Shown: positions 14,631 to 26,690, counted from the first letter of the stretch. The stretch: 64,000 nt of DNA from Deltaproteobacteria bacterium (GCA_040218735.1 JAVJQW010000015.1:91779-155778); one strand, 5' to 3'. Translations and numbers: made by a program. Notes: generated by a model from the sequence alone, not told the origin.

Positions 14631-15281
14631 ATGTCCGCCATGGCGCGGCCCGTGAACGCCGACACCGAAGCCACCCAGGCCCGTATCCGCGACGCCGCGC
14701 TCGAGCTGTTGGCGGAGCGGATGACCGGGGACCTGTCGATTCGGGAGGTGTCGAGACGCGCGGACGTCAGCGTCAGCCTCATCAACCACTACTTCGACAG
14801 CAAGGAAGGGCTGCTCAAGGCGTGCATCGACACGATGTACCTGGAGCTGGAGTCGGCCCGCGACCAGGCGCTCGCCCACGCGATGGAGTTCGCCGACGCG
14901 TACGCGTTCATCGAGGCAACCGTCCGTGCCGGCTTCGTTTTTGCCTGTGAGCACCGGCCGATCATGCGCGCGCTGGTGGGGCTCGTTCTCCACAACGGCG
15001 AGCTCCCGGAGACCGGCAGAAACCGAATCCAGGTGCCCTTCCTCGACCAGTGGTCCGAGCAGATCGCGAGCCTGCTCGGGTGCACGAAACACGAGGCGCG
15101 GCTGACGCTCCAGAGCATCGCCTTCCTCACCTCGCGCTACTCGATCGCGACGACCAAGGAGCTCGTCCCGATCGTCGGCCTCGGGGAAGGGGTGCCGCCG
15201 GAGAAGCTCCGCGAGGAGGTCGCCGACCACCTCGCGATGGCGTCCCGCGCCCTCCTGCGCAGCCTCGACCGCCGCGCATGA
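14631..15281 (+). CDS. TetR/AcrR family transcriptional regulator
   Basis: TQARIRDAALEL...SIREVSRRADVSVSLINHYFDSKEGL HTH; ATGA overlap with the next gene. Confidence 0.9.
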   Translation: MSAMARPVNADTEATQARIRDAALELLAERMTGDLSIREVSRRADVSVSLINHYFDSKEGLLKACIDTMYLELESARDQALAHAMEFADAYAFIEATVRAGFVFACEHRPIMRALVGLVLHNGELPETGRNRIQVPFLDQWSEQIASLLGCTKHEARLTLQSIAFLTSRYSIATTKELVPIVGLGEGVPPEKLREEVADHLAMASRALLRSLDRRA

Positions 15282-16297
15282 AGGAGCGGGTCGAGGAGGC
15301 CGTCCGGCGGGCGCTCGCGTACCTCGCGGCCGCCCAGCTCGACCACGGGGAGTGGCCGGTCCTGCAGAGCCCCGAGCCGACGCTGCAGCGCGAGGCGACG
15401 CTCGACAGCACGCCGTTCGCGACCGCGCTCATCCTTCACGGGCTGCGGTTCGCGGATCCTGCTGAGGCCCGGACGGCGATCGACAAGGGGTGTGCGTTCC
15501 TCCTCGCCGAGATGCGCGGCGAAGGGTTGTGGACCTACTGGTCGTCGTACAACCCGGCCTTTCAGGAGGCGCCGCCGGACATCGACGACATCAGCTGCAT
15601 CTCGTACGTCCTTCGCCACTACGGACACACGTTCGCGAGCGCGCGCGAGATCATCTTGGACCACCGCAACGAGGAAGGTCTGTTCTACACGTGGCTCCTC
15701 CCGCGCGCCGAGTCTTCACCGCGACTCAAGGCGGCGCTCGAGGCCGAGTGGCACCCCAGCCTCGCGCAGGTGATGGCGTCGATGTCCCTGCGCGACGTCG
15801 TGGACACCGCGGTCAACGCCAACGCGCTGTTGTTCCTCGGCGAGTCCGATCCGCGAACGCACGCTTCGCGCGACGCGGTGGTTCGGCGCGTCCTTGCCGG
15901 AACCGAGGTCGACGGCGGTGACTACTATTTGGGGCCCGTGATCATCTGGTACTTCGTCGCGCGCGCGTTCGCGAACGGCGTGCGTGGGTTCGGGGCGGTG
16001 CGTGACCATGTCATCGCGCGTGTCCCGGATGAGTTGTCCGACCCGACTCCGCAGACGCTGGCGCTGGCGATTTGTACACTGTTCGATTTCGACGGCGCCG
16101 TCGAGGAGCCGTGGATCGAATCCTTGCTCGACTCACAGGCCGACGACGGGAGCTGGCCGCGGGAGACCGCGTACATCTACGGGGACCGCGAGTCGGGTTC
16201 CGCCTATTTCTACGGGTCGGAGTCACTCACGACCGGCTTCTGTCTCGAAGCGTTGGCGCGTTATTCTCTCGCGCGTGGAGCGCGGAAGCACGCCTGA
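15278..16297 (+). CDS. Single-domain class II terpene cyclase-like (prenyltransferase/squalene-cyclase repeat) protein
   Basis: QW motifs QLDHGEW and QADDGSW; acidic DxDD motif PPDIDD; 339 aa, consistent with one alpha6/alpha6 barrel. Confidence 0.72.
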   Translation: MKERVEEAVRRALAYLAAAQLDHGEWPVLQSPEPTLQREATLDSTPFATALILHGLRFADPAEARTAIDKGCAFLLAEMRGEGLWTYWSSYNPAFQEAPPDIDDISCISYVLRHYGHTFASAREIILDHRNEEGLFYTWLLPRAESSPRLKAALEAEWHPSLAQVMASMSLRDVVDTAVNANALLFLGESDPRTHASRDAVVRRVLAGTEVDGGDYYLGPVIIWYFVARAFANGVRGFGAVRDHVIARVPDELSDPTPQTLALAICTLFDFDGAVEEPWIESLLDSQADDGSWPRETAYIYGDRESGSAYFYGSESLTTGFCLEALARYSLARGARKHA

Positions 16298-17525
16298 TGC
16301 ACCGGACCCGTTCGACGCCCTCGCGGCGGACGTCCGGCGACGCTGGGCGAAGGCGGGATTCGGTACGGACTGTTTCTGCGAGGTCGCGAGCGAGGCGCTG
16401 GACCAAGCGGAGCTGCATCGCTTGGGCAAGACCGCGCTCCTGAACCTGGCGATCGCCCGGATCGATCGCGGCGCGCACCGCGCTTGTTTTCACGGGGCCG
16501 ACAACGTCGTCCCGATCTTCGCGGACGACAAGTTCATCATGACGTTCCACCTGTGGCGTCACACGTTCGGCAATCCGCATTCGCATGAATGGAATGGCGC
16601 CTTTCAGAACCTCACCGACCCCGTCGTCTACGCGGACTACGCCTTCGAGACGACGTGGCGACTCAACCACGACCTCGAGATCGGCCGCCTGACGCAGGAG
16701 CGCCTCTCGGTCCTGCAGCCGGGCGCGATCGTCAGCGTCGAACGCGACCGGAGTGTGCACGGGTTCGGGCACACGGGGTTGCCGGGGCTGACGGTCGCCG
16801 TTCGCTCCCGCGACGCGTACGGCCACACCTACGACTACTGGGGCGACGCGCTCCGCGTGACGAACGGCGCGACCGACGAAGTCGACGAGGGCGCGACGCT
16901 GCGCGCCCGATTGCTCACCAACCTCCGGAGCGTCTTGGAAGCGGACTTCGAAGTACGCCTCGTCGAGAGCGTTCGCGCGGGGGGCCTGCGGGAGAACGTC
17001 CTGCTCGCGCTGCGCCTCGTGGAGCGTGACCCGCAGCTGCACACCGAGGTCTTCGCGGCCTTCATGAAGACGGAGCCGGCGGCGTCGGTCGCGTCGAGCG
17101 TCGAAGCGGCGCTCGTCGACAAGGCGCGGCACCACCAGGCGCTGTCGATGTTCGAGGATGCGTCTACGCCGGCCGAGCGTTTCCTCGTCTCGCTGCTGCG
17201 TTTTGCTCCGGACGGCTCACGCCTTCGCGCGCTGGTCGCCGAGCACGCTGCGCAGCTCGGTATCGAGCCCTCGGGTTTTTCGGCGGCGCTGGGTCAGGTC
17301 GCTCGCCGATCCGGTGCGCGTTACCTCACGGGACCAGAGCGACTCCGCAATATCGCCTTCGACGTACTGGAGTCCCTGCTCGAAGGAGATGCTCACGAGC
17401 GAACCGTCGAGAAGCTTGGCGCGCTCTACCGGATCGAGAACATCGACGACGTGGTTCGCAACATGATGAGTTGGCTCGCGTCGATGCCGGTATTTCAGAG
17501 TGTGCTGGGCGAGGTGAGAACTTGA
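16275..17525 (+). CDS. Cupin-fold (cysteine-dioxygenase-like) metalloprotein
   Basis: PHSHEWNGAF (HxH) plus distal VHGFGH; helical C-terminal half; start uncertain (GTG 16275). Confidence 0.55.
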   Translation: MERGSTPDAPDPFDALAADVRRRWAKAGFGTDCFCEVASEALDQAELHRLGKTALLNLAIARIDRGAHRACFHGADNVVPIFADDKFIMTFHLWRHTFGNPHSHEWNGAFQNLTDPVVYADYAFETTWRLNHDLEIGRLTQERLSVLQPGAIVSVERDRSVHGFGHTGLPGLTVAVRSRDAYGHTYDYWGDALRVTNGATDEVDEGATLRARLLTNLRSVLEADFEVRLVESVRAGGLRENVLLALRLVERDPQLHTEVFAAFMKTEPAASVASSVEAALVDKARHHQALSMFEDASTPAERFLVSLLRFAPDGSRLRALVAEHAAQLGIEPSGFSAALGQVARRSGARYLTGPERLRNIAFDVLESLLEGDAHERTVEKLGALYRIENIDDVVRNMMSWLASMPVFQSVLGEVRT

Positions 17526-18376
17526 AGGCCACGGTCCGTGAATATCTCGACGCGCTCATGCCGCAGGCTCTCGCGTGTCGACTTCAGGTCATCCAGCCGG
17601 TCGCCGCCGCGATGGTGGAAGCCATCGGCGATCGCCCCCTCCTCGAAGTCACCGCGTGGGAGCTGGAGGCGCCCCTGGGACGCGCGGGTTACGACCTCGC
17701 CGAGTATCTCGAACACCGCCGCGACTGGAACAACAGCTACGTCGAGACGACGACCACGCCTTGGATCCCGGCGGACGACGGAACCCAACCACACCCGCTC
17801 CTCGAGGAGCACGCGCGTCGTGGGTTCGGAGGTGCCGGGCGTGTACTCGAGCTGGGTTGCGGTGTCGGCGCGAACGCGGCGTTCCTCGCCGAGCGCGGCG
17901 CCGACGTTCTCGGTGTGGACATCGCGGCGAGCGCCATCGCCTGGGGTAAGAACGCGTTCGGCCCGGTGGGAGGGAGGCTCTCGCTCGAGGTCGGTGATTC
18001 GCTCGGGCTCGACGTCGCCGCGGGGTCGTTCGACTTCCTCCTCGACAGCTGGTGCCTTCACCACATCCCGGTGCACCTCATGCCGCGTCACGTCAGTCGT
18101 GCGGCGGAGGCGCTCCGGCACGCGGGGGAGCTGCTGCTGTTCGTTCACTCCCCCAAGTACAACCGGACGGAGGGGCTGCTGTTCTTGTCGACCGGTGTCG
18201 TCGGAAAGGCGTTGCGCTACGTTCTCGAACACGACTCCGAGTCCTGCTTCTCGGCGGCGGAGCTCGAACGGCTCCTCGAGCCGAAGTTCCTGGTCGAGTC
18301 GATCGACCATCACTACGACCATCACCTGAACGCGGACCGGCACTACAGCTTCGTCGTCCGTGCGAAGCGGCGTTGA
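17522..18376 (+). CDS. Class I SAM-dependent methyltransferase
   Basis: VLELGCGVG (motif I), GVDIA, SFDFLLDSWCLHH; TTGA overlap with the upstream gene. Confidence 0.88.
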   Translation: MKATVREYLDALMPQALACRLQVIQPVAAAMVEAIGDRPLLEVTAWELEAPLGRAGYDLAEYLEHRRDWNNSYVETTTTPWIPADDGTQPHPLLEEHARRGFGGAGRVLELGCGVGANAAFLAERGADVLGVDIAASAIAWGKNAFGPVGGRLSLEVGDSLGLDVAAGSFDFLLDSWCLHHIPVHLMPRHVSRAAEALRHAGELLLFVHSPKYNRTEGLLFLSTGVVGKALRYVLEHDSESCFSAAELERLLEPKFLVESIDHHYDHHLNADRHYSFVVRAKRR

Positions 18377-18379
18377 TAC

Positions 18380-19696
18380 TCAGAGCGTGTGGAGCAACCC
18401 GGCTGCGGTGAGGCGCTCGACGATGGTGTTCAAGCGGTTCGAATCCACGTCCGGGTGATCACCCGCCACTTCGTCGACCGTGCGCCCCTTCGCGAAGCTC
18501 AACAGCGGCGCGACCAGGTTCAATGGGATCGGGAAGACACGCCCGTCCGAGCCTTCGACCCTCGCGTGCCGTTCGTCGTGGGACGTGATTCGCACCGCGT
18601 CGTCGAGGCGATGGCGGGGACCCGCCGATGCGTCGACCTTCGGCTCGAGGAAACGACGGAACAGCGGGGCCCCGAAGTCGACGCTGTCGACGTAGCGATC
18701 CGCGCGAACGTCGATGCCTAGATCGTCGAGGCACGACCGGAGCGTCGTGCGGATTCTGTCGTAGGCGCGCGGCGCGGTGCGCCAGGGCTCGGCGACGACA
18801 CCTTCGACGCGTTCGAGGCAACGCCGTCGGATCGGCTCTTCGGGCGCGCGGAGGATCTCGGACGCCACGAGCTGCAGGAGATGGTTCGCCGGGATCTCAT
18901 CGAGCACCGCGCCGAGACGAGGCGGCGGCGAGACACCACGGACACCCACGGAGAACGAGGGCTCGAGGTAGTCGACGTGGTGCCAGAAGAACGGCGGGAT
19001 GTAGACCGCTTCGCCGACGTCGACCACGAGCTCGACGCCACCTGCGTACCGCAAGAAGCCGGCGCGCTCGTCGTCGGACAGGTCACGGAGCCGCACGCCG
19101 CCGAAGTACATGATCGGATCGAGTCGGGGGCCCGAGCGCGGCGGGAACAGGAGGTAGCGCTTCCGGCCGATAACGGTGAGGTTGAAGACGTGCCGCCCGT
19201 CGCGGTCGAAGTGAAGGTCACTCGCCTGCCGGGCGGCGGCGAGGTACGCGTACACGAGCGCCGCGTGATCAGCGGCCTTGGCCTGTCCCGGTTCGAAGTC
19301 GAGGCCGAGCCGCTCGAGCAACGGGCCGCGTGACCCCAGGGTTTCGAGAAGCGCCGAGCTCGGTCGCAGCTCCACGGCCGGGGGTGTCGACTCCGGGGAC
19401 TCGTGCATGCGCGTGAGGTAGTCGTCGAGTGGGAGCGTCTCCCCTGCGTCGGCGTCGAAACGTTCGAGGGCTTCGGCGTCGTGGGTTCGCAGGAAGTCAC
19501 CCGCCGCACCGAGCAGCCGTCGCGCGTAGCTCGGTTCGATCCGGATGTCCCACGGCGCGGTGCGCTCGGCGAGCTCCGCAAAGTCCTTGGCGATCGGCGC
19601 GCCCGTCCGGAGCACGGCCTCGTCCACGAGGGCAGGGCGGTGCTCTTCCATGTGACGGAGGACTTCGTCGCAGGAAGTCAGGCGGCGGATGTTCAC
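18380..19696 (-). CDS. JmjC/cupin-like Fe(II)/2OG oxygenase with C-terminal winged-helix-like domain
   Basis: SDLHFD (HxD), GRKRYLLFPP, GEAVYIPPFFWHHV (distal His). Confidence 0.85.
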   Translation of the reverse strand: MNIRRLTSCDEVLRHMEEHRPALVDEAVLRTGAPIAKDFAELAERTAPWDIRIEPSYARRLLGAAGDFLRTHDAEALERFDADAGETLPLDDYLTRMHESPESTPPAVELRPSSALLETLGSRGPLLERLGLDFEPGQAKAADHAALVYAYLAAARQASDLHFDRDGRHVFNLTVIGRKRYLLFPPRSGPRLDPIMYFGGVRLRDLSDDERAGFLRYAGGVELVVDVGEAVYIPPFFWHHVDYLEPSFSVGVRGVSPPPRLGAVLDEIPANHLLQLVASEILRAPEEPIRRRCLERVEGVVAEPWRTAPRAYDRIRTTLRSCLDDLGIDVRADRYVDSVDFGAPLFRRFLEPKVDASAGPRHRLDDAVRITSHDERHARVEGSDGRVFPIPLNLVAPLLSFAKGRTVDEVAGDHPDVDSNRLNTIVERLTAAGLLHTL

Positions 19697-20841
19697 GGGG
19701 TGTCCGCCCGCGTGAGGAAGCCGCGCTCGCACAACACGGTGAGTAGACGATCGGTGTAGGTCGGGGGCAGCGATGGGTTGTGCGCGCGCGCGAGGTACCC
19801 CGAGAACGGTAATTGCCGTGTACCGATCCACCGCAGGAGCGGGACGAGCGCCTTCGAGACGAGTTGTCCGCGCGCGTCGCCGGTGGCGTCCCGGATCTCG
19901 ACCCACCAGTACCCCCCGGCGCGTCGTGTGAGGCGGAGGTTCTTGTCGTCGCGCGGGACGAACATCGTCGTGGGCGGGACGAGGCCTTCCCGAGGGTCGT
20001 CCAGAGCGTCCGCCTTCACTTCGTGCCAGCGGCGGTCCAGCTCTTGGTCGAGTGACGCTCGGTCGTATGGTTCGACTTCGGGCCATCGCTCCGTCGGATC
20101 CACGCTGCGGTCGAGCGCCGACCACGCGCGCGAGGCGTAGTCACCCCGTCGGACGGTGAAGACGAGGCTCCATGACTCACCGAGGCCTTCGGTGCGGTGC
20201 CAGTGATACGGGGGGACGTACGCGAGCGTCCCCGCCGTGAACACGACTTCGCGGGACCGCGCGGCGATCGCAGTGTCGAAGGCGGTGCGCTCGTCCTCGG
20301 TCATCGGGTTGTCCGCGAGCCAGTTGCTCGAATGCCCGGTTTCGTGGGGCCCGATCGCCCCTTCGGCCGGCGCTATCCACCACCGCTTCTCACCCGAGAG
20401 CTGCAGGACGAGCAGGCCGGTCGTCAGGTCGTGGTGCCAGTCGAGGCCGAGCCCCGCGGAACCCACGCTGAGAAGCGCGCTGACCGCGTAGCGCTGACCG
20501 TTCGCGAGCTCGTCCGCGAGGGCGTGTTCCCACGCGATGACTTCGGGGATGGGTAGCGGGCGAATGAGTATCTGGCCTCCACGCTGGTGCGTGGTGATGG
20601 CTGTCGAGTGAGGGACCGGTGACTCGCCGAACGGTTGGAGCGTGGCGGAGCACTCCGCCGCCGGGAACTCACCGAAGAAGTCGGCGAGGGACGGTGCCCT
20701 CGGGTCCGGCCACTGCGTACGGATCTCTTCGGCGACGACGGTTTCGAACCCGCGGTGCTCCTCGAACGCCGCGCGAAGCCGGTCCGCGGTGCCGCCGGCG
20801 AGTCGCTCGATGCCTTCGGCGCGGAGCGCTTCGGAGCTCAC
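19693..20841 (-). CDS. JmjC/cupin-like Fe(II)/2OG oxygenase with C-terminal winged-helix-like domain
   Basis: LDWHHD (HxD), LQLSGEKRWWI, GTLAYVPPYHWHRT; GTGA overlaps on both sides. Confidence 0.85.
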   Translation of the reverse strand: MSSEALRAEGIERLAGGTADRLRAAFEEHRGFETVVAEEIRTQWPDPRAPSLADFFGEFPAAECSATLQPFGESPVPHSTAITTHQRGGQILIRPLPIPEVIAWEHALADELANGQRYAVSALLSVGSAGLGLDWHHDLTTGLLVLQLSGEKRWWIAPAEGAIGPHETGHSSNWLADNPMTEDERTAFDTAIAARSREVVFTAGTLAYVPPYHWHRTEGLGESWSLVFTVRRGDYASRAWSALDRSVDPTERWPEVEPYDRASLDQELDRRWHEVKADALDDPREGLVPPTTMFVPRDDKNLRLTRRAGGYWWVEIRDATGDARGQLVSKALVPLLRWIGTRQLPFSGYLARAHNPSLPPTYTDRLLTVLCERGFLTRADTP

Positions 20842-23048
20842 GGTTCGTCCTCCTTCGCCGAACGTAGCTGTGCGCGAACGAGTGACGCGTAGACTCCGTC
20901 GGTCGCGAGCAGCGATGCGTGGGTCCCGCGTTCGACGATACGCCCGCGGTCCATGACGAGGATCTGGTCCGCGCCGACGATCGTGCTCAGGCGATGGGCG
21001 ATCACGATGCGCGTGCAGTCGAGCTCGGAGAGCCGATCGAAGACGGCCGCTTCCGTCACGGCGTCGAGGGCGCTGGTCGCTTCGTCGAGGACCACGACCG
21101 CGGGAGGCGAGACGAGCGCACGCGCCAACGCGAGGCGCTGTCGTTGGCCCCCCGAGAGTGACGTGCCGCCGTCCGCGAGGACGGTTTCGTAGCCCATCGG
21201 CATCTCGGCGATCTCGTCGTGGATGCACGCGCGCTTCGCGGCCTCGACGATCTGCGCTTCGTCGAGATCGGGCTCGGCCATCGAGACGTTCGCTTTGATG
21301 CTCCCGCTGAAGAGGTGCGGTGTCTGCGGCACGAGACGGACCTGCTTGCGGAGCGCCACGAGGTCGAGCGAGGGCAGCGCGAGGCCGTCGAACGCGACCT
21401 TGCCCGCGTTGGCGTCGCGCAGCCCGACCAGCACACTCGCGAGCGTCGACTTGCCGGAACCGGATCGTCCGACGATCGCGATGAGCTCACCGCGGCGCGC
21501 TACGAACGAGACGTCGTCGACGACCGCGGGGCTGTGGCGTGAGTACGCGAACGTGAGGCCTTCGACCTCGATCGCTCCCGTGAGCGGCGGTGGTGTTTCG
21601 ACCGCGCTCGGATCTTGATGTGGCTTGGTCTCGAAGACGTCGTCGAGGCGCGCCAGGTAGCTCGACAGGAACTGGACCTGCCCGACGGTCGAAGTCAGGC
21701 CGGAGAGCGGGATGAAGAAGGCGACCGCGAGCGCGTTGAGGGCGAGCATCGTGCCGAGGCTCATCGTTCCGTCCAGCACGAGGAGCGCGCCGTAGCTCAG
21801 CGCGACGAGGGGCGACGCGAGGCGGATCGTGGAGACGATCGACTGGAGGAGCGCGTCGAGGCGATCGCGTTCGATGGAGGCGTTGAGGACGTCGACGAAG
21901 AGGTCGCTCCAGCCCTGCACGGAGCGTTGCTCGCCGCCGATCGCCTTGAGGGTCTCGATACCGCTGATGAGCTCGACGAGGCGACCGTCGGCGCGCGCCT
22001 GCGCTTCGAGGCTGAACGCCATCAGCTCGCGTTGACGACGGTAGCCGAGCACGATGACCAGCATCTGGAGCCCGCCGAGCACGACGACGAGCGCGCCCAT
22101 CGGGACGCTGATCGTGAGCATCACGGCGAGGAAGGAGACGGCGAGGACGGCGTCGAGGAGCCCCGAGAGGACGCCGGAGGTGAAGATCTCGCGCACCGTG
22201 GTGTTGCTGTTCACGCGCGCGAGCAGGTCGCCGGTCGAGCGGGTCTCGAAGAACGCATACGGGAGGCTGACGAGGTGCTCGAGGAGATCCAGCGTCATCC
22301 GGGTGTCGAACTTGGCGCGGATGGCGATGAGCACGTGGGCGCGGACCATCGAGGTGAGGAACGACAGCAGGAGCACCAACAGGAGCACGCCGCCGAGCTG
22401 CACGAGGAGGTTTGCGTCGCGCTGGGGGATCACGCGGTCGACCACCAACCCCGTCAGCAGCGGAGTGGCGAGCGCAAAGCCCTGGAGGAGCGCAGACGTG
22501 AAGAGCACCCGCGCGAGACCTCCGAAGTGCGCGCCGATCTGTCTACCGTAGTGCCAGATTCTGCCGTGGCGACGCGCGATGGGTTCGAAGCGCTCGCCGG
22601 GTTCGAAGGTCAGCGCGACGCCGGTGAAGTCGCGACGAAACTCGTCCATGGCGACGCGCCGACGACCGAAGGCGGGGTCGACGATGTGGATGGCGTCGCG
22701 CCCGACGCGTTCGAGGACGACGAAGTGGTTGAAGCCCCAGTGGAGGATCGAGGCGGGCGGGAGTTTTTCGACACTCGATACGCCCAGCGTGAGCGCCCGA
22801 ACGTTGAGCCCCTGCTGCTCGGCGGTTTCGAGGATCGTGCGTGCGTCGATCCCGTCGCGGCCGACGCCGCTCGCTTCGCGCAGCTCGCGCAGGGGGATGT
22901 GGCGCCCGTGGTAGGCGAGGACCATCGCGAGGCAGGCTGCGCCACACTCGGTATTGGTGAGTTGTTGAACGACCGGGACGCGACCGCGCCGCCGTTGGGG
23001 TCGTTCTCGTATCGGCGTGACCGGGGCGCTGGAGGACTCGGCGGTCAT
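20838..23048 (-). CDS. Peptidase-containing ABC transporter (C39 + TMD + NBD), RiPP/bacteriocin exporter
   Basis: QQLTNTECGAACLAM (Cys), HWGFNHFVV...DPA (His/Asp), GRSGSGKST, LSGGQRQR, LDEATSALD. Confidence 0.95.
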   Translation of the reverse strand: MTAESSSAPVTPIRERPQRRRGRVPVVQQLTNTECGAACLAMVLAYHGRHIPLRELREASGVGRDGIDARTILETAEQQGLNVRALTLGVSSVEKLPPASILHWGFNHFVVLERVGRDAIHIVDPAFGRRRVAMDEFRRDFTGVALTFEPGERFEPIARRHGRIWHYGRQIGAHFGGLARVLFTSALLQGFALATPLLTGLVVDRVIPQRDANLLVQLGGVLLLVLLLSFLTSMVRAHVLIAIRAKFDTRMTLDLLEHLVSLPYAFFETRSTGDLLARVNSNTTVREIFTSGVLSGLLDAVLAVSFLAVMLTISVPMGALVVVLGGLQMLVIVLGYRRQRELMAFSLEAQARADGRLVELISGIETLKAIGGEQRSVQGWSDLFVDVLNASIERDRLDALLQSIVSTIRLASPLVALSYGALLVLDGTMSLGTMLALNALAVAFFIPLSGLTSTVGQVQFLSSYLARLDDVFETKPHQDPSAVETPPPLTGAIEVEGLTFAYSRHSPAVVDDVSFVARRGELIAIVGRSGSGKSTLASVLVGLRDANAGKVAFDGLALPSLDLVALRKQVRLVPQTPHLFSGSIKANVSMAEPDLDEAQIVEAAKRACIHDEIAEMPMGYETVLADGGTSLSGGQRQRLALARALVSPPAVVVLDEATSALDAVTEAAVFDRLSELDCTRIVIAHRLSTIVGADQILVMDRGRIVERGTHASLLATDGVYASLVRAQLRSAKEDEP

Positions 23049-23635
23049 GGTGTCCTCGCAGAGATCGAAGCCAAGAGCCACGACGCGGCGGGGGTGGGGT
23101 CGAGCGTGATCTCCACGTCGAGCGTCGTGCCGTCGATCATTCCGTGGCGTGCTTCCTCATCGAGGGGCGCGCGGACGATGACCGAAGGCCCTTGCGGGAC
23201 GATGGTGTCCGCGACGCGGGGCGGGAGTCGTCGCGCGACGTCGCGGCTGCTGACCACCTCGGACACGTAGTCGATCTGCGCCTCGCGAACGCCGGCGCTG
23301 CTGTGAAGCGTGAGCTTCATGCCCGGGGCCAAAGATACATCGTGCTCGGCGGGCAGGATCGCGAAGGCCGTCCAGGCGGGGCCTTGGCTACGGTCCGCGT
23401 GAACCACGGCGGGCCCGCGCGCGGCGCTGCGCACGGGGAGAAAACCCATGAAGACAATGAGTACCGCCGTACCTACGAGGAGGGTCCAGAACCCACCCTT
23501 CGTCCACCAGGTGTCGAGCGCGAGCAGACGACGACGCTCCTGCGCCGCGGCGCGCAGCGCGTGCGCTTCTTTGCGGAAGATCCCCGCCGGGACTCGGGAG
23601 GACAGGTCGTCCGTCGGGGTCGTTCGTTCGCTCAC
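23045..23635 (-). CDS. Short HlyD-like membrane fusion/accessory secretion protein
   Basis: IFRKEA N-terminal motif, single TM, beta-barrel-like C-terminus, ATGA overlap with the PCAT gene; helical hairpin appears absent. Confidence 0.6.
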   Translation of the reverse strand: MSERTTPTDDLSSRVPAGIFRKEAHALRAAAQERRRLLALDTWWTKGGFWTLLVGTAVLIVFMGFLPVRSAARGPAVVHADRSQGPAWTAFAILPAEHDVSLAPGMKLTLHSSAGVREAQIDYVSEVVSSRDVARRLPPRVADTIVPQGPSVIVRAPLDEEARHGMIDGTTLDVEITLDPTPAASWLLASISARTP

Positions 23636-23682
23636 GTCCGACACCTCGGTGCGGCGAACGCGCACGCGGTGACGGCGGGACG

Positions 23683-24780
23683 ATGTTCGTCTACGGTGCG
23701 GCGCACGTCATGCCGGCAGGAGTGAAGGACGCGACCTCGAGTATGGCGGGCACCGTAGAGATGTTCGAAGATCTCCTCCCGGCGTCGGTCGTACAAGCCG
23801 ATGACTACCGGCGGATCCTCCGAACGCTCCAAATGCTGCCGCCGATCTTCGCGGGGAATGGGTTCGGAATCGAACACGAGATCCGCGACGATGGTACCGC
23901 TAAGGAGAGCTCCCTGTCCGTATCGTTGGCGCTTCAGTACGAAGAGCTCGGTCGTGTGAACCTCGCGCGCCTGGTCCAGCGCTACCTGGGTGACTGGATG
24001 CTCGACGAGGCCTTCCATGCGTGGTTCCTCGACAGCGCGGAGCGGCTCGCGGCAGAGCCGCTGTTTCCCATTCGGACGTACTTCGGCTTCGAGGTACCGG
24101 ACGTCTCTCGCTCCGAGCTGCGCGTGGCGGGGATCGTCTGGGCATTCGAGGAAGGTCACCCCGAGGCCTCCTTCGACGCGGCGATGCGGCTGCTCCTCGG
24201 CGCGCGATACGCACCCGAGCACCCGTCGCTGGTGACGCTCCGTGGCGTGTGCGGTGACGCGCGCGTTCGAGAGGTCGGGTACGGGCGCAGGGGCGAGCGA
24301 GAGGTCCACAAGGCGTACCTGCACCGTCCGTTGGCCGAGAACGTTGCGTTGCTCGAACATTTCCCGATCGGCGCGGCCGAGGCGCTGCGTGACAACCTCA
24401 TGGCGCTCGCGGAGGTCACGCCGGAGTGGTCTTGTTTGTGTGCGCTGGATGCGCTCGAGGGGGTGTTCGCACGGGTGGGTTTCGAGCTCAATTTCGAGCA
24501 CGAGGAGTCCCGGCGCTTCGTAGAGCCGTTCCTGGCGTCTCCGCTCGTGGCGCACCATTTCCCCGAACGGGCGCTCGAACCCATTCGAAGTACCCTGCTC
24601 GAGGGTGTGGTTCTACGGGATCGCGATGGACGTGTGGGGCGATTCGAAGTCACCCACGCGAAAGTTTCGTTGCGGCTGGATGGTTCGATCAATTGGAAGG
24701 TCTACTTCGCCTTCGAGGTGCAGAACGAGGTGCCCGAATCGCTCCCCATTCTCCTTCCGTGGCTCCGTGGTACAGCCTGA
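23683..24780 (+). CDS. Hypothetical protein, putative ABBA-fold peptide prenyltransferase
   Basis: Alternating strand motifs FGIEHEI, YFGFEV, EVGYG, KAYL, ALD, RVGFELNF, THAKVSL, WKVYF, reminiscent of ABBA prenyltransferases; start may be 23710 or 23743. Confidence 0.45.
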   Translation: MFVYGAAHVMPAGVKDATSSMAGTVEMFEDLLPASVVQADDYRRILRTLQMLPPIFAGNGFGIEHEIRDDGTAKESSLSVSLALQYEELGRVNLARLVQRYLGDWMLDEAFHAWFLDSAERLAAEPLFPIRTYFGFEVPDVSRSELRVAGIVWAFEEGHPEASFDAAMRLLLGARYAPEHPSLVTLRGVCGDARVREVGYGRRGEREVHKAYLHRPLAENVALLEHFPIGAAEALRDNLMALAEVTPEWSCLCALDALEGVFARVGFELNFEHEESRRFVEPFLASPLVAHHFPERALEPIRSTLLEGVVLRDRDGRVGRFEVTHAKVSLRLDGSINWKVYFAFEVQNEVPESLPILLPWLRGTA

Positions 24781-24827
24781 GCGGCCGCCGACGCCCTATC
24801 GGCGGCGCGCCCATTGTTACTTACATC

Positions 24828-25067
24828 CTAGGTCGGCCACTTGTGGGGGTCCGTGACGACCTTCGGTTTGCGTCGGCCGCCGCCGACCGCTTCCAGCTCC
24901 TCGGGGGAGAGCTCGACCATCGGCAGCTCGCCGTTGATCATGAAGTCCTCGAACTCCGCGAGGGAGCACCGCTGCCCGATCTTCTGGACCGCCGACCACT
25001 GATCGTGGCTCATCGAGCGAGTCGCCTGGTGGAGCTCGTTCAAGGTTAGAGAGTTCTTTTTCGCCAT
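24828..25067 (-). CDS. RiPP precursor peptide (79 aa) with double-glycine leader
   Basis: ELSPEELEAVGGG leader end followed by RRKPKVVTDPHKWPT; AGGA RBS upstream; close to the C39 transporter. Confidence 0.85.
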   Translation of the reverse strand: MAKKNSLTLNELHQATRSMSHDQWSAVQKIGQRCSLAEFEDFMINGELPMVELSPEELEAVGGGRRKPKVVTDPHKWPT

Positions 25068-25268: not shown

Positions 25269-26690
25269 CTATTTTCTGGGCGCGGGCGTCGAGCTCGGTT
25301 GTCCACCGAGGCGAGCTTCGATGCCTGCGAGGCGTCGAGTCAGCGCGTCGATCGCGTCGGCTTGAGCGTCGATGATCGCCTGCTGCTCTTGGACCGCTCC
25401 GACGAGCAGCGGCAGGACCGGGCTGTGGTCCATCACGCGGAAGTCCGGGATGACTTGTCCACCGACGGTCTCCTTCACCTGCCGCACCATCTCCGGGACG
25501 ACCTGCTCGGCCTCCTGCGCGATGAAGCCGAAGTTGCGAACGGGTAGCCCGTCGTGGTCGGCGCGGTAGGTCTCGGTCCAGGCGTAGGTGACCGGGCGTA
25601 GCTGCTGGACGCGAGCGAGGGCGCTGTCGAGATCCTCGATCTGGGTCTTGATGCGTCGGTCCGAGCTCGTGGCCCACGTGGAGCTCGCCGAGCGCGCCAC
25701 GCCGTTGACGTGGAGGACGTGGCTCGGGTTGGTGGTTCCGATGCCGACGCGGCGGTTGCTGTGAACCATCGACATGATGACGCCGCTGGTCTGGTTGGGC
25801 GCGTTCGCGGAGAGGAAGACGAGCTTGCCGACGCCTTCGCCGTTGTTGGGCCCGGTGCTCAGTACGACGAACCAGCGTCCGTTGGTCGCGGTGTTGCCGA
25901 GGGAGAGCCAGGTCCCGATGTTCGAGGAGCTTTGGATCGTGGTCGCGGGGATCGTGTTGGTCGCGACGTGCAGGCGCGCGCCGGGGCTCACGGTGCCGAT
26001 GCCGACGTTGCCGCCGGCGCGGTAGGTGTTGTTGCCGGAGGTCGTCCAGACTTGGTTGCCGATGGGGCCCTGCGGTCCGGTCGCGCCTTGTGGGCCTTGA
26101 GGGCCCGTGGCCCCGGTAGGTCCGGCGTCGCCTTGGGGACCCGCGGGTCCCTGCGGACCGATGGAACCGTCAGCGCCGGCGGGGCCCTCGGGTCCGGGGT
26201 CGCCGGCGGGGCCTTGGAGGCCGGTGGTGTCGCCGACCCAGCGTCCGCTCGCGTCGATGACTTCGCCGTAGCCGCGGATGGCGATCGACGTCGGGTTGAT
26301 GTCACCGACGGCGTCTTCGCAGACGAGCGCGCTGGGGGCGCTGGTGATCGCGACGCGCGGGCTCAGCGTCTCGCCGTCCACGGTGATTTCGAGCCAACGT
26401 GATGGTGCGGCGAAGAGTTGTTGGTCGACGCTCGCGGTCGCGCCGAGCTCCACGGAGAAACGTCCGTCGAGGACGGCGATCGTTTGGGCTTCTTCCCACA
26501 GGGCGTCGCCGCCGTCGGCGGCGTCGAAGACGGAGAACGTCACGGGGAAGGTTCCTTCCACGGGGGTGCCGTCCGCGTCGTACAGGGTGCCGCGGTACGC
26601 GACGGTCGAGGGCACGGCGGCCCAGGCCGACGTGGTGAGCACCAAACTCAGAATCGAAATCACACAGCCGTAAGTTTTGAACATCTTCAT
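25269..26690 (-). CDS. Secreted fibre protein with collagen-like repeat and C-terminal S74 intramolecular chaperone
   Basis: Signal peptide ending AWA; GNVGIGT/RVGIGT fibre repeats; SSDRRIK and GFIAQE S74 motifs; coiled-coil tail. Confidence 0.88.
26052..26222 (-). repeat. Collagen-like (Gly-X-Y) x19 coding repeat
   Basis: [12 protein letters not shown]...GPQGPIGNQ within the fibre gene. Confidence 0.85.

Follow-up and report, generated by a model that had tools for sequence, protein, structure and literature searches.

Ten adjoining genes of a deltaproteobacterium predicted to make a tryptophan-terpenylated peptide with separate prenyltransferase and cyclase enzymes

The subject of this study is a cluster of ten adjoining genes, found by ORF (open reading frame) calling at positions 14631-25067 of a stretch of 64,000 nucleotides (hereafter the window; GCA_040218735.1, JAVJQW010000015.1:91779-155778) from the large, high-GC genome of a deltaproteobacterium. 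We consider it likely that these genes, designated A to I and P, form one pathway for a ribosomal peptide-terpenoid hybrid carrying a cyclised terpene on a Trp residue. Gene content, folds, catalytic motifs and the co-inheritance of the whole set were established with computational tools. An earlier reading of the sequence alone, referred to below as the original prediction, had proposed such a hybrid made by separate enzymes. At the level of the genes and of their co-inheritance this proposal stands; the prenylation of Trp, the cyclisation, the hydroxylation and the methylation we infer.

Organization of the gene cluster

The ten ORFs lie where the original prediction had placed them, and its precursor, C39 exporter, two JmjC oxygenases, TetR regulator and methyltransferase genes were all confirmed. 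The features are the following:

14631-15281 (+), gene A: TetR-family regulator of 216 aa (Pfam TetR_N, 47.1 bits)
15278-16297 (+), gene B: one-domain class II terpene cyclase of 339 aa, with P-D-I-D-D and two QW-type motifs
16275-17525 (+), gene C: protein of 416 aa, N-terminal half cupin-like (cysteine-dioxygenase/PCO_ADO type), C-terminal half helical
17522-18376 (+), gene D: class I S-adenosylmethionine methyltransferase (Methyltransf_25, 55.3 bits); TTG start at 17522, alternative ATG at 17558
18380-19696 (-), gene E: JmjC/Cupin_8 Fe(II)/2-oxoglutarate oxygenase of 438 aa with a C-terminal extension of ~110 aa
19693-20841 (-), gene F: second JmjC oxygenase, 382 aa, with a C-terminal extension
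20838-23048 (-), gene G: peptidase-containing ABC transporter of 736 aa (C39 peptidase, permease and ATPase)
23045-23665 (-), gene H: small membrane protein of about 196-206 aa, translationally coupled to G
23743-24780 (+), gene I: ABBA-fold prenyltransferase; the ORF of 365 aa opens at 23683, the likely start being the ATG at 23743
24778-24813 (strand not assigned): GC-rich hairpin between the converging genes I and P
24828-25067 (-), gene P: precursor of 79 aa, with an AGGAAA-like site upstream of its ATG

Consecutive genes overlap by 4 bp at A/B, C/D, H/G, G/F and F/E and by 23 bp at B/C. Between the stops of D (18376) and E (18380) lie 3 bp, confirming the convergence of the two operons described before. 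Gene I diverges from H and converges on P. It is the sole prenyltransferase-family match in the window, which holds no UbiA-type gene. Among the ten ORFs, Pfam detected no LanM, LanB, YcaO, radical SAM or lasso-cyclase domain, upholding the earlier statement on this point, and no sensor kinase/regulator pair.

The hairpin has a 9-bp perfect stem (-31.2 kcal/mol). It lacks a T run and does not differ significantly from shuffled sequences (z = -1.44). A promoter/terminator scan found no sigma-70-like promoter and returned 8 terminator-like sites versus 4.6 expected. The flanking genes are ordinary, with MscS and a GNAT/nitrilase fusion on one side. Directly adjoining the promoter side of P, at 25269-26690 (-), the window encodes a protein of 473 aa with collagen triple-helix repeats and an endosialidase-chaperone (Peptidase_S74) domain, which resembles the end of a phage tail fibre.

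The gene set is conserved in Enhygromyxa salina

The check on co-occurrence that had been suggested with the original prediction was positive. E. salina SWB007 carries counterparts of eight genes within 11 kb of one contig (L108, NZ_PVNL01000063.1, 6886-17205), in a different order, with identities of 58% for P, 40% for I, 49% for B, 42% for C, 54% for D, 41% for E, 38% for F and 48% for G. The 49%-identical protein is also the closest relative of B for which the gene context is available. These counterparts were found with a custom query panel, with which alone loci L098-L108 were annotated. No TetR counterpart was detected with this panel in the E. salina locus. In the place of H, upstream of the exporter, lies a protein of 268 aa without a BLAST match to H.

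In E. salina the precursor heads an F-E operon, I diverges from the precursor, and the exporter pair is found upstream of B. Despite this rearrangement the precursor adjoins I in both genomes, and the stop-to-stop junction of D and E is kept, with 7 bp between the stops in E. salina versus 3 bp here. The retention of the full set after rearrangement indicates that the two converging operons belong together and constitute one inherited unit. The E. salina precursor core, NKPRKVVVVSNPHDWPS, ends in NPHDWPS, and the two cores share the pattern KP+KVV...[DN]PHxWP[TS], in which the Trp is invariant. A P450-like ORF is located ~3 kb beyond the E. salina cluster.

Homologues of B (87% identical) and of I (85% identical) were each located on a contig of 32,091 nt that comes from the same sources, probably one and the same contig, belonging to a third relative. 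From another sample, a contig of 80,869 nt covers the entire 11 kb, without gaps and at 133 differences. Additionally, a metatranscriptome run yielded contigs of 151-283 nt that are ~90% identical to parts of C, G and I and to the 5' end of the precursor gene, which is not proof of transcription. The E. salina strain with the sister cluster features in a genome and metabolome study of isolated marine myxobacteria (PMC6226438); in the excerpts of that study at hand, 'bacteriocin' clusters and an indole prenyltransferase are described for E. salina and no such hybrid is mentioned.

The precursor peptide and its predicted core

The precursor P reads ...ELSPEELEAVGGG followed by RRKPKVVTDPHKWPT. 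Its leader ends in ...VELSPEELEAVGGG, and the predicted core is RRKPKVVTDPHKWPT. Cleavage after GGG would release 15 residues with a net charge of about +4 (M = 1844.053, unmodified), without Cys and with the Trp third from the C-terminus (...PHKWPT). With the cut after the third Gly, the residues at -4, -7, -8 and -12 are, as read by eye, V, L, E and L, in agreement with the classical double-glycine leader register. Pfam has no match for P. At 64 aa the leader is long; it matches the Nif11-like model below threshold (E 0.13) and resembles the leader of a precursor in another genome of our survey, G113, described below. A complex prediction for I and the precursor, run without controls, scored 0.00.

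The prenyltransferase

Gene I was originally taken for a putative ABBA prenyltransferase next to the precursor, and its predicted fold confirms it as such. No Pfam or NCBIfam model matched; membership in PTase_Orf2, Trp_DMAT or DUF5838 was not found, and a profile search of PDB sequences returned nothing relevant, language-model feature likeness being the only sequence-level link to ABBA families. The AlphaFold (AF2) model, built from 8 sequences, has a pLDDT (predicted local distance difference test) of 85.2 and a pTM of 0.85. Residues 1-18 are disordered, and ten strands in five pairs alternate with helices. In Foldseek, all matches listed are aromatic prenyltransferases (AmbP3, NphB/Orf2, EpzP, AmbP1, FamD1, AtaPT, IptA, CloQ, DMATS1 and FunA), with a probability of 1.00, E-values of 1e-7 to 2e-5 and TMq of 0.41-0.57. 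The family alignment shows invariant K-x-Y, R...E, H-x-K and W-K-x-Y on successive strands, basic and aromatic residues whose pattern would fit diphosphate binding.

The I family is rare. Among 1.84 billion representatives, nine proteins including I itself matched at E <= 0.001, one of them a repeat protein of 988 aa that is probably spurious. A search of 40 relatives did not find I, and among 400 other genomes of the phylum it was found in one. Of the locus searches run with I, P0004, P0002 and alignment A4 against collections of genomes or metagenomes, the one with A4 in the metagenomes alone gave matches, all of them loci of a distant I subfamily. Members of a distant branch occur amid genes for glycosyltransferases, a PIG-L deacetylase, a sugar epimerase and 2-oxoglutarate oxygenases (L081:8053-12576 and L085:3037-7615), with no peptide genes seen in either interval. 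This branch may have another substrate.

The terpene cyclase

The assignment of B as a DxDD/QW class II terpene cyclase-like protein holds by a PDB sequence match and by predicted fold, despite a Pfam SQHop_cyclase_C score of 18.5 bits, below the gathering cut-off of 26.1. Three of four B homologues exceed that threshold (27.7, 36.3 and 39.7 bits), the fourth (L014:9615-10583) being without a Pfam family. In a phmmer search of the PDB, B matched the drimenol synthase 9mhs_B (E 2.5e-5), with P-D-I-D-D aligned to the catalytic DDLDTT; P-D-x-D-D is invariant in all four aligned homologues. QW motifs, of which B has two, are a consensus of class II terpene cyclases. The AF2 model of B (pLDDT 80.5, 4 sequences) matched the drimenol synthase AsDMS in Foldseek with TMq 0.74 (E 6e-13), the one-domain myxobacterial cyclases 8pak/8paj from Cystobacter and Archangium with TMq 0.67, and MstE with 0.65-0.67.

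Tailoring enzymes and exporter

E and F belong to the JmjC/cupin oxygenases, with Pfam scores of 40.5 bits for Cupin_8 in E (cut-off 27.4) and 26.2 bits for JmjC_2 in F (cut-off 22). E matched FIH (E 1.5e-4) and JMJD5 in the PDB, its H-x-D...H being aligned to the FIH triad. Likewise, the H-x-D...H of F aligned to that of Bacillus YxbC (1vrb), a 'putative asparaginyl hydroxylase' (E 3.3e-5). By eye, the ~110-aa C-terminal extensions of both proteins (18380-18727 and 19693-20040, both -) show a strand-strand-strand-helix order like that of a leader-binding winged helix (PqqD/RRE type). These extensions had no Pfam match at E up to 10, and hhalign against three PqqD-like ORFs of L068 gave nothing.

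C had been called a cupin. No Pfam, NCBIfam or PDB sequence match was obtained for it, and that name now rests on structural neighbours in the ESM Atlas, which are cysteine-dioxygenase/PCO_ADO cupins over residues ~6-200, with helical repeats beyond. Of 400 other genomes of the phylum, 18 contain members of the C family. For its gene context, 10 of the 21 matched places outside G000 were fetched, chosen for a spread of E-values and long contigs. A LanB-like dehydratase lies within 10 kb of the C homologue in seven of the ten, which represent 3 genera and are not independent. These seven loci (L099-L102, L104, L105 and L107, from G149, G296, G160, G145, G193, G327 and G182) have the C homologue 2-4 kb from the LanB-like gene, and two of them also have a C39-type exporter (E about 1e-183). 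The C family may be an unrecognised RiPP (ribosomally synthesised and post-translationally modified peptide) tailoring or binding protein.

G contains the domains expected of a peptidase-exporter: Peptidase_C39 (115.2 bits), ABC_membrane (123.5) and ABC_tran (101.7). The C39 domain is intact, its Cys and His motifs being visible in the sequence. The best NCBIfam match is the NHLP bacteriocin exporter TIGR03796, at 621.6 bits, below the cut-off of 853.3. H, with 206 aa and one membrane helix by eye, had no family match even at E up to 10 in Pfam and 5 in NCBIfam. Its earlier description as HlyD-like keeps in its favour the position by the exporter and the membrane helix, and on these two features H is possibly a minimal HlyD-type accessory protein; no Pfam or NCBIfam model backs the name.

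Prenyltransferase and cyclase families in other genomes

A pattern search for the B family gave 66 loci in many phyla, including archaea, and partner genes were identified with custom hidden Markov models and queries. A UbiA-type membrane prenyltransferase is fused to the cyclase or lies within 10 kb in 27 of the 66. A protein of the wider I family accompanies the cyclase in seven, two of which had been used to build the profile, and RiPP features are present at five of these seven loci. One is a compact three-gene cassette in an Acidobacteria genome (L058:2315-4839, +), in which an NHLP-like precursor of 84 aa ending in GWRPF is directly followed by the prenyltransferase and then the cyclase. 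Another (L061) combines LanM, a C39 exporter and two precursors ending in SCWA and SCWS. A third (L074) has two radical SAM/SPASM enzymes, a precursor ending in DGWV and a fusion protein of 769 aa (15327-17636, -), in which a weak terpene-cyclase-like region (residues 243-325) precedes an I-family prenyltransferase domain (366-723). Cupin_8, LanB and a small Cys/Ser-rich ORF are found at L064, the same locus as L014, whose prenyltransferase-like protein was aligned by hhalign with a probability of 50% over 290 columns. At L068 the RiPP features were recognised by eye only, and no RiPP feature was recognised at L060 and L076.

A relative of I also occurs in genome G113 (L004:13020-19918), adjoining an MNIO enzyme (MbnB/TglH/ChrH) and a precursor of 116 aa, together with two TauD-like oxygenases; the gene is cut by the contig end. 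The precursor has the same leader type as P and a lysine-rich core ending in IDWCGRCW.

Two B-family loci have unusual partners. In Nostoc punctiforme NIES-2108 (L019:7988-11674, +) a fusion protein of 1228 aa unites a PhyH-like dioxygenase, a UbiA-type prenyltransferase, a B-family cyclase (PPDLDD) and TPR repeats, and lies amid glycosyltransferase-like giant ORFs. In G139 (L012:9601-18605, -) the cyclase homologue overlaps by 4 bp the end of an RHS/SpvB-domain protein of 2694 aa, an odd partner.

Proposed pathway and alternative explanations

In the pathway that we propose, the 79-aa precursor would be made with a leader that keeps it recognisable to the maturases. The soluble enzyme I would transfer a farnesyl or geranylgeranyl group from the cellular diphosphate pool to the conserved Trp (...PHKWPT), and B would protonate the distal alkene of the attached chain via its DxDD acid, giving a bi- or polycyclic terpene with the mass unchanged. 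E and F would hydroxylate side chains of the core, for which Asp, His, Arg, Lys and Pro are candidates, and C and D would add one further oxidation and one methyl group. G, perhaps with H, would cut after GGG and secrete the cationic 15-mer, and the TetR regulator A would control the B-C-D operon. As to the role of a cationic peptide bearing a rigid lipid, membrane-directed antagonism or signalling is our guess.

Several observations weigh against this pathway. Codon GC content at third positions is no different in the cluster (0.78-0.93) than in its flanks (0.81-0.92) when corrected gene starts are used. Three polyprenyl diphosphate synthases are encoded in the genome, none of them on the contig of the cluster. 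The core contains no Cys, although C is similar to thiol dioxygenases. When 19 I-family members are placed in a tree, the root of which is arbitrary, I groups with the G113 protein and the L081/L085 relatives and falls outside the deep clade of cyclase-associated prenyltransferases. No B-family cyclase was found at the five metagenome loci of the distant I subfamily, nor, by profile search, in the G113 genome (98% complete), from which it follows that an I-type enzyme can work without one. The closest solved structures of B act on free farnesyl diphosphate (FPP). In a FastTree tree of 66 cyclase domains B is a long branch of weak placement (support 0.75), and 11 of the 12 other members of the surrounding group are UbiA-associated. 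Finally, B-C-D form a separate, TetR-led operon on the opposite strand. These points lower our confidence in the order and the target of the chemistry, not in the unity of the cluster.

The target is at issue in an alternative that we regard as unlikely, in which the residue prenylated by I is not the Trp but the His, Arg, Lys or Thr of ...PHxWP[TS], with subsequent cyclisation by B and all else as proposed. The His is as conserved as the Trp in both cores, and the introduction of one paper (PMC10853753) gives Ser/Thr, Tyr, Trp, His, Arg and the termini as acceptors of known ABBA peptide prenyltransferases. The precursors by family members in four other loci, however, share only a near-C-terminal Trp (GWRPF, SCWA/SCWS, DGWV and GRCW), and both characterised cyclising systems act on Trp, according to a 2026 review (PMC13290415). 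It is likewise improbable that I and B-C-D make a small-molecule meroterpenoid while the peptide undergoes no more than hydroxylation by E and F before export, the genes being co-inherited by joint action or linkage. Judging by structure titles, NphB, CloQ, EpzP and MstE act on small aromatics, and such a product would agree with the weak grouping of B with UbiA-associated cyclases and with the non-RiPP sugar-gene contexts of some I relatives. Against it, no aromatic-acceptor gene was found in either cluster (Pfam on the ten window ORFs, the custom panel on L108), the precursor has remained beside I with its Trp motif conserved, and fused and adjacent pairs of both families occur in clear RiPP loci.

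A more radical separation, in which the peptide receives a linear prenyl group and hydroxyls only and TetR-B-C-D serves a non-peptide substrate merely alongside, appears to us quite unlikely. The separate operon with its own regulator, the occurrence in G113 of the prenyltransferase type and a precursor with no such cyclase, and the use of free FPP by the nearest structures of B would all be accommodated by it. Against it speak E. salina, where after rearrangement B, C and D, at 42-54% identity, are still accompanied by P, I, E, F and G and the D/E junction is kept, the contig of 32,091 nt that B and I probably share in the third relative, and the LanB-like neighbours of the C family in seven of the ten fetched loci, with the non-independence noted above. 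Reversing the two key steps, with B converting FPP to a cyclic diphosphate (drimenyl diphosphate, for example) and I then attaching the ring system to the peptide, would match the best structural hits of B, which are drimenol/drimenyl diphosphate synthases. In ABBA enzymes, on the other hand, formation of the cation requires a diphosphate that is allylic, which that of drimenyl diphosphate is not; a cyclic homoallylic diphosphate being a poor ABBA donor, this order is chemically unlikely. Known systems also prenylate first, according to the 2026 review (PMC13290415), and we regard this last possibility as very improbable.

If prenylation of Trp by I and subsequent cyclisation by B are indeed the route followed, a split pair of soluble prenyltransferase and cyclase with a short linear substrate would be easier to dissect and to employ elsewhere in late-stage peptide lipidation. 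A testable recognition motif is offered by the conserved ...PHxWP[TS] end, and the extra steps (JmjC, cupin and methyltransferase) hold out the prospect of chemistry new to such hybrids. As the E. salina strain was part of the genome and metabolome study named above, the product of the sister cluster may be sought directly. A broader picture, which we put forward tentatively and at somewhat less than an even chance, is that of a new natural product, a 15-residue peptide of charge +4 whose Trp carries a cyclised sesqui- or diterpene and which is oxidised and methylated, acting in marine myxobacteria as a membrane-targeting antibiotic or a ComX-like signal. In this picture the separate enzymes and the LanB-associated cupin family would represent a movable 'Trp-terpenylation' toolkit, used in lanthipeptide, radical-SAM, NHLP, MNIO and double-glycine pathways of at least five phyla and one archaeon.

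Comparison with known systems

With the double-glycine bacteriocins that are exported by C39-ABC transporters, the cluster has in common the GG(G) site, hydrophobic residues at -4, -7 and -12, Glu at -8 and the N-terminal C39 domain. It differs in its long leader of 64 aa with a sub-threshold Nif11-like match, and in a core proposed to be heavily tailored versus unmodified. Among ABBA enzymes, I shares with PagF, LimF, NphB, CloQ and the DMATS group the PT-barrel fold with basic and aromatic residues on successive strands. From the cyanobactin F-family it is set apart by having no Pfam family and by a cluster without PatA/PatG proteases. Cyanobactin prenyltransferases prefer C5-C10 donors, as stated in PMC13290415.

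Prenylation of Trp at or near the C-terminus of a ribosomal peptide links the proposed product to the ComQ/ComX and PalQ/PalX systems. In the extracts of PMC10853753 on which we draw, PalX uses an NHLP leader, and ComQ and PalQ have an isoprenoid-synthase fold, not the ABBA fold, with no terpene cyclase, JmjC protein or exporter-peptidase described. An assignment to the ComQXPA type finds no basis here, the contig having no polyprenyl_synt-type gene and the ten ORFs no kinase/regulator pair.

Cyclised indole terpenes are also known from the drimentines, Trp diketopiperazines in whose biosynthesis farnesylation precedes cyclisation to a drimane, with a tRNA-dependent cyclodipeptide synthase and a membrane-bound cyclase. 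The likeness lies in indole prenyl transfer followed by class II-type cyclisation, and the difference in the absence of a ribosomal precursor from the drimentine pathway. As for the cyclase itself, B has the single alpha/alpha-barrel domain of ~340 aa, the DxDD-type acid and the QW motifs of MstE and AsDMS. MstE cyclises a prenylated benzoate, whereas for B we propose a prenyl chain attached to a peptide; the substrate of AsDMS is free FPP, and this enzyme, unlike B, carries a fused HAD phosphatase.

The closest known systems are the fused maturases. Our literature search, outside which Hubrich et al. 2024 and all supplements lay, so that a prior mention is possible, found no description of this cluster. 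Hubrich and co-workers are said to have predicted such units, in their 2024 work, in the proteusin, Nif11-like and lanthipeptide families. The statement in the original prediction that cyclised-isoprenoid RiPPs are made by fused prenyltransferase-cyclase maturases proved correct, as NctPC and ChrPC are presented in the 2026 review (PMC13290415). Cyclised-terpene peptides were first described in 2024, from fused maturases only. NctPC consists of an ABBA prenyltransferase fused to an MstE-like cyclase and geranylgeranylates Trp before cyclising the chain, and ChrPC is a trans-IDS-like version of the fused maturase (PMC13290415, citing Hubrich et al., Chem 2024, 10:3224).

Like the NctPC/ChrPC-type RiPPs, the cluster has a leader-bearing ribosomal precursor whose core contains Trp, a putative peptide prenyltransferase (of ABBA type, as in NctPC) and a one-domain MstE-like cyclase, with Trp prenylation and then cyclisation as the proposed sequence of events. 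No fusion of the NctPC/ChrPC kind is present. I (23743-24780, +) and B (15278-16297, +) are separate genes 7.4 kb apart, which our comparison had placed on opposite strands and which are both listed on the (+) strand. The cyclase of NctPC is MstE-like, whereas the fold of B resembles that of drimenol synthase (TMq 0.74) more than that of MstE (0.67). Beyond the NctPC/ChrPC equipment as described in the review, two JmjC oxygenases, a cysteine-dioxygenase-like cupin and a methyltransferase are found here. The core is short, linear and cationic, the exporter is of the C39-ABC type, and the host belongs to the phylum of Enhygromyxa and Corallococcus and is not a cyanobacterium. The system, originally put forward as a candidate new RiPP system, is not new in kind and constitutes a split-enzyme variant of a RiPP class known since 2024. 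What is new is the separation of the enzymes, the tailoring set, the core motif and the host group.

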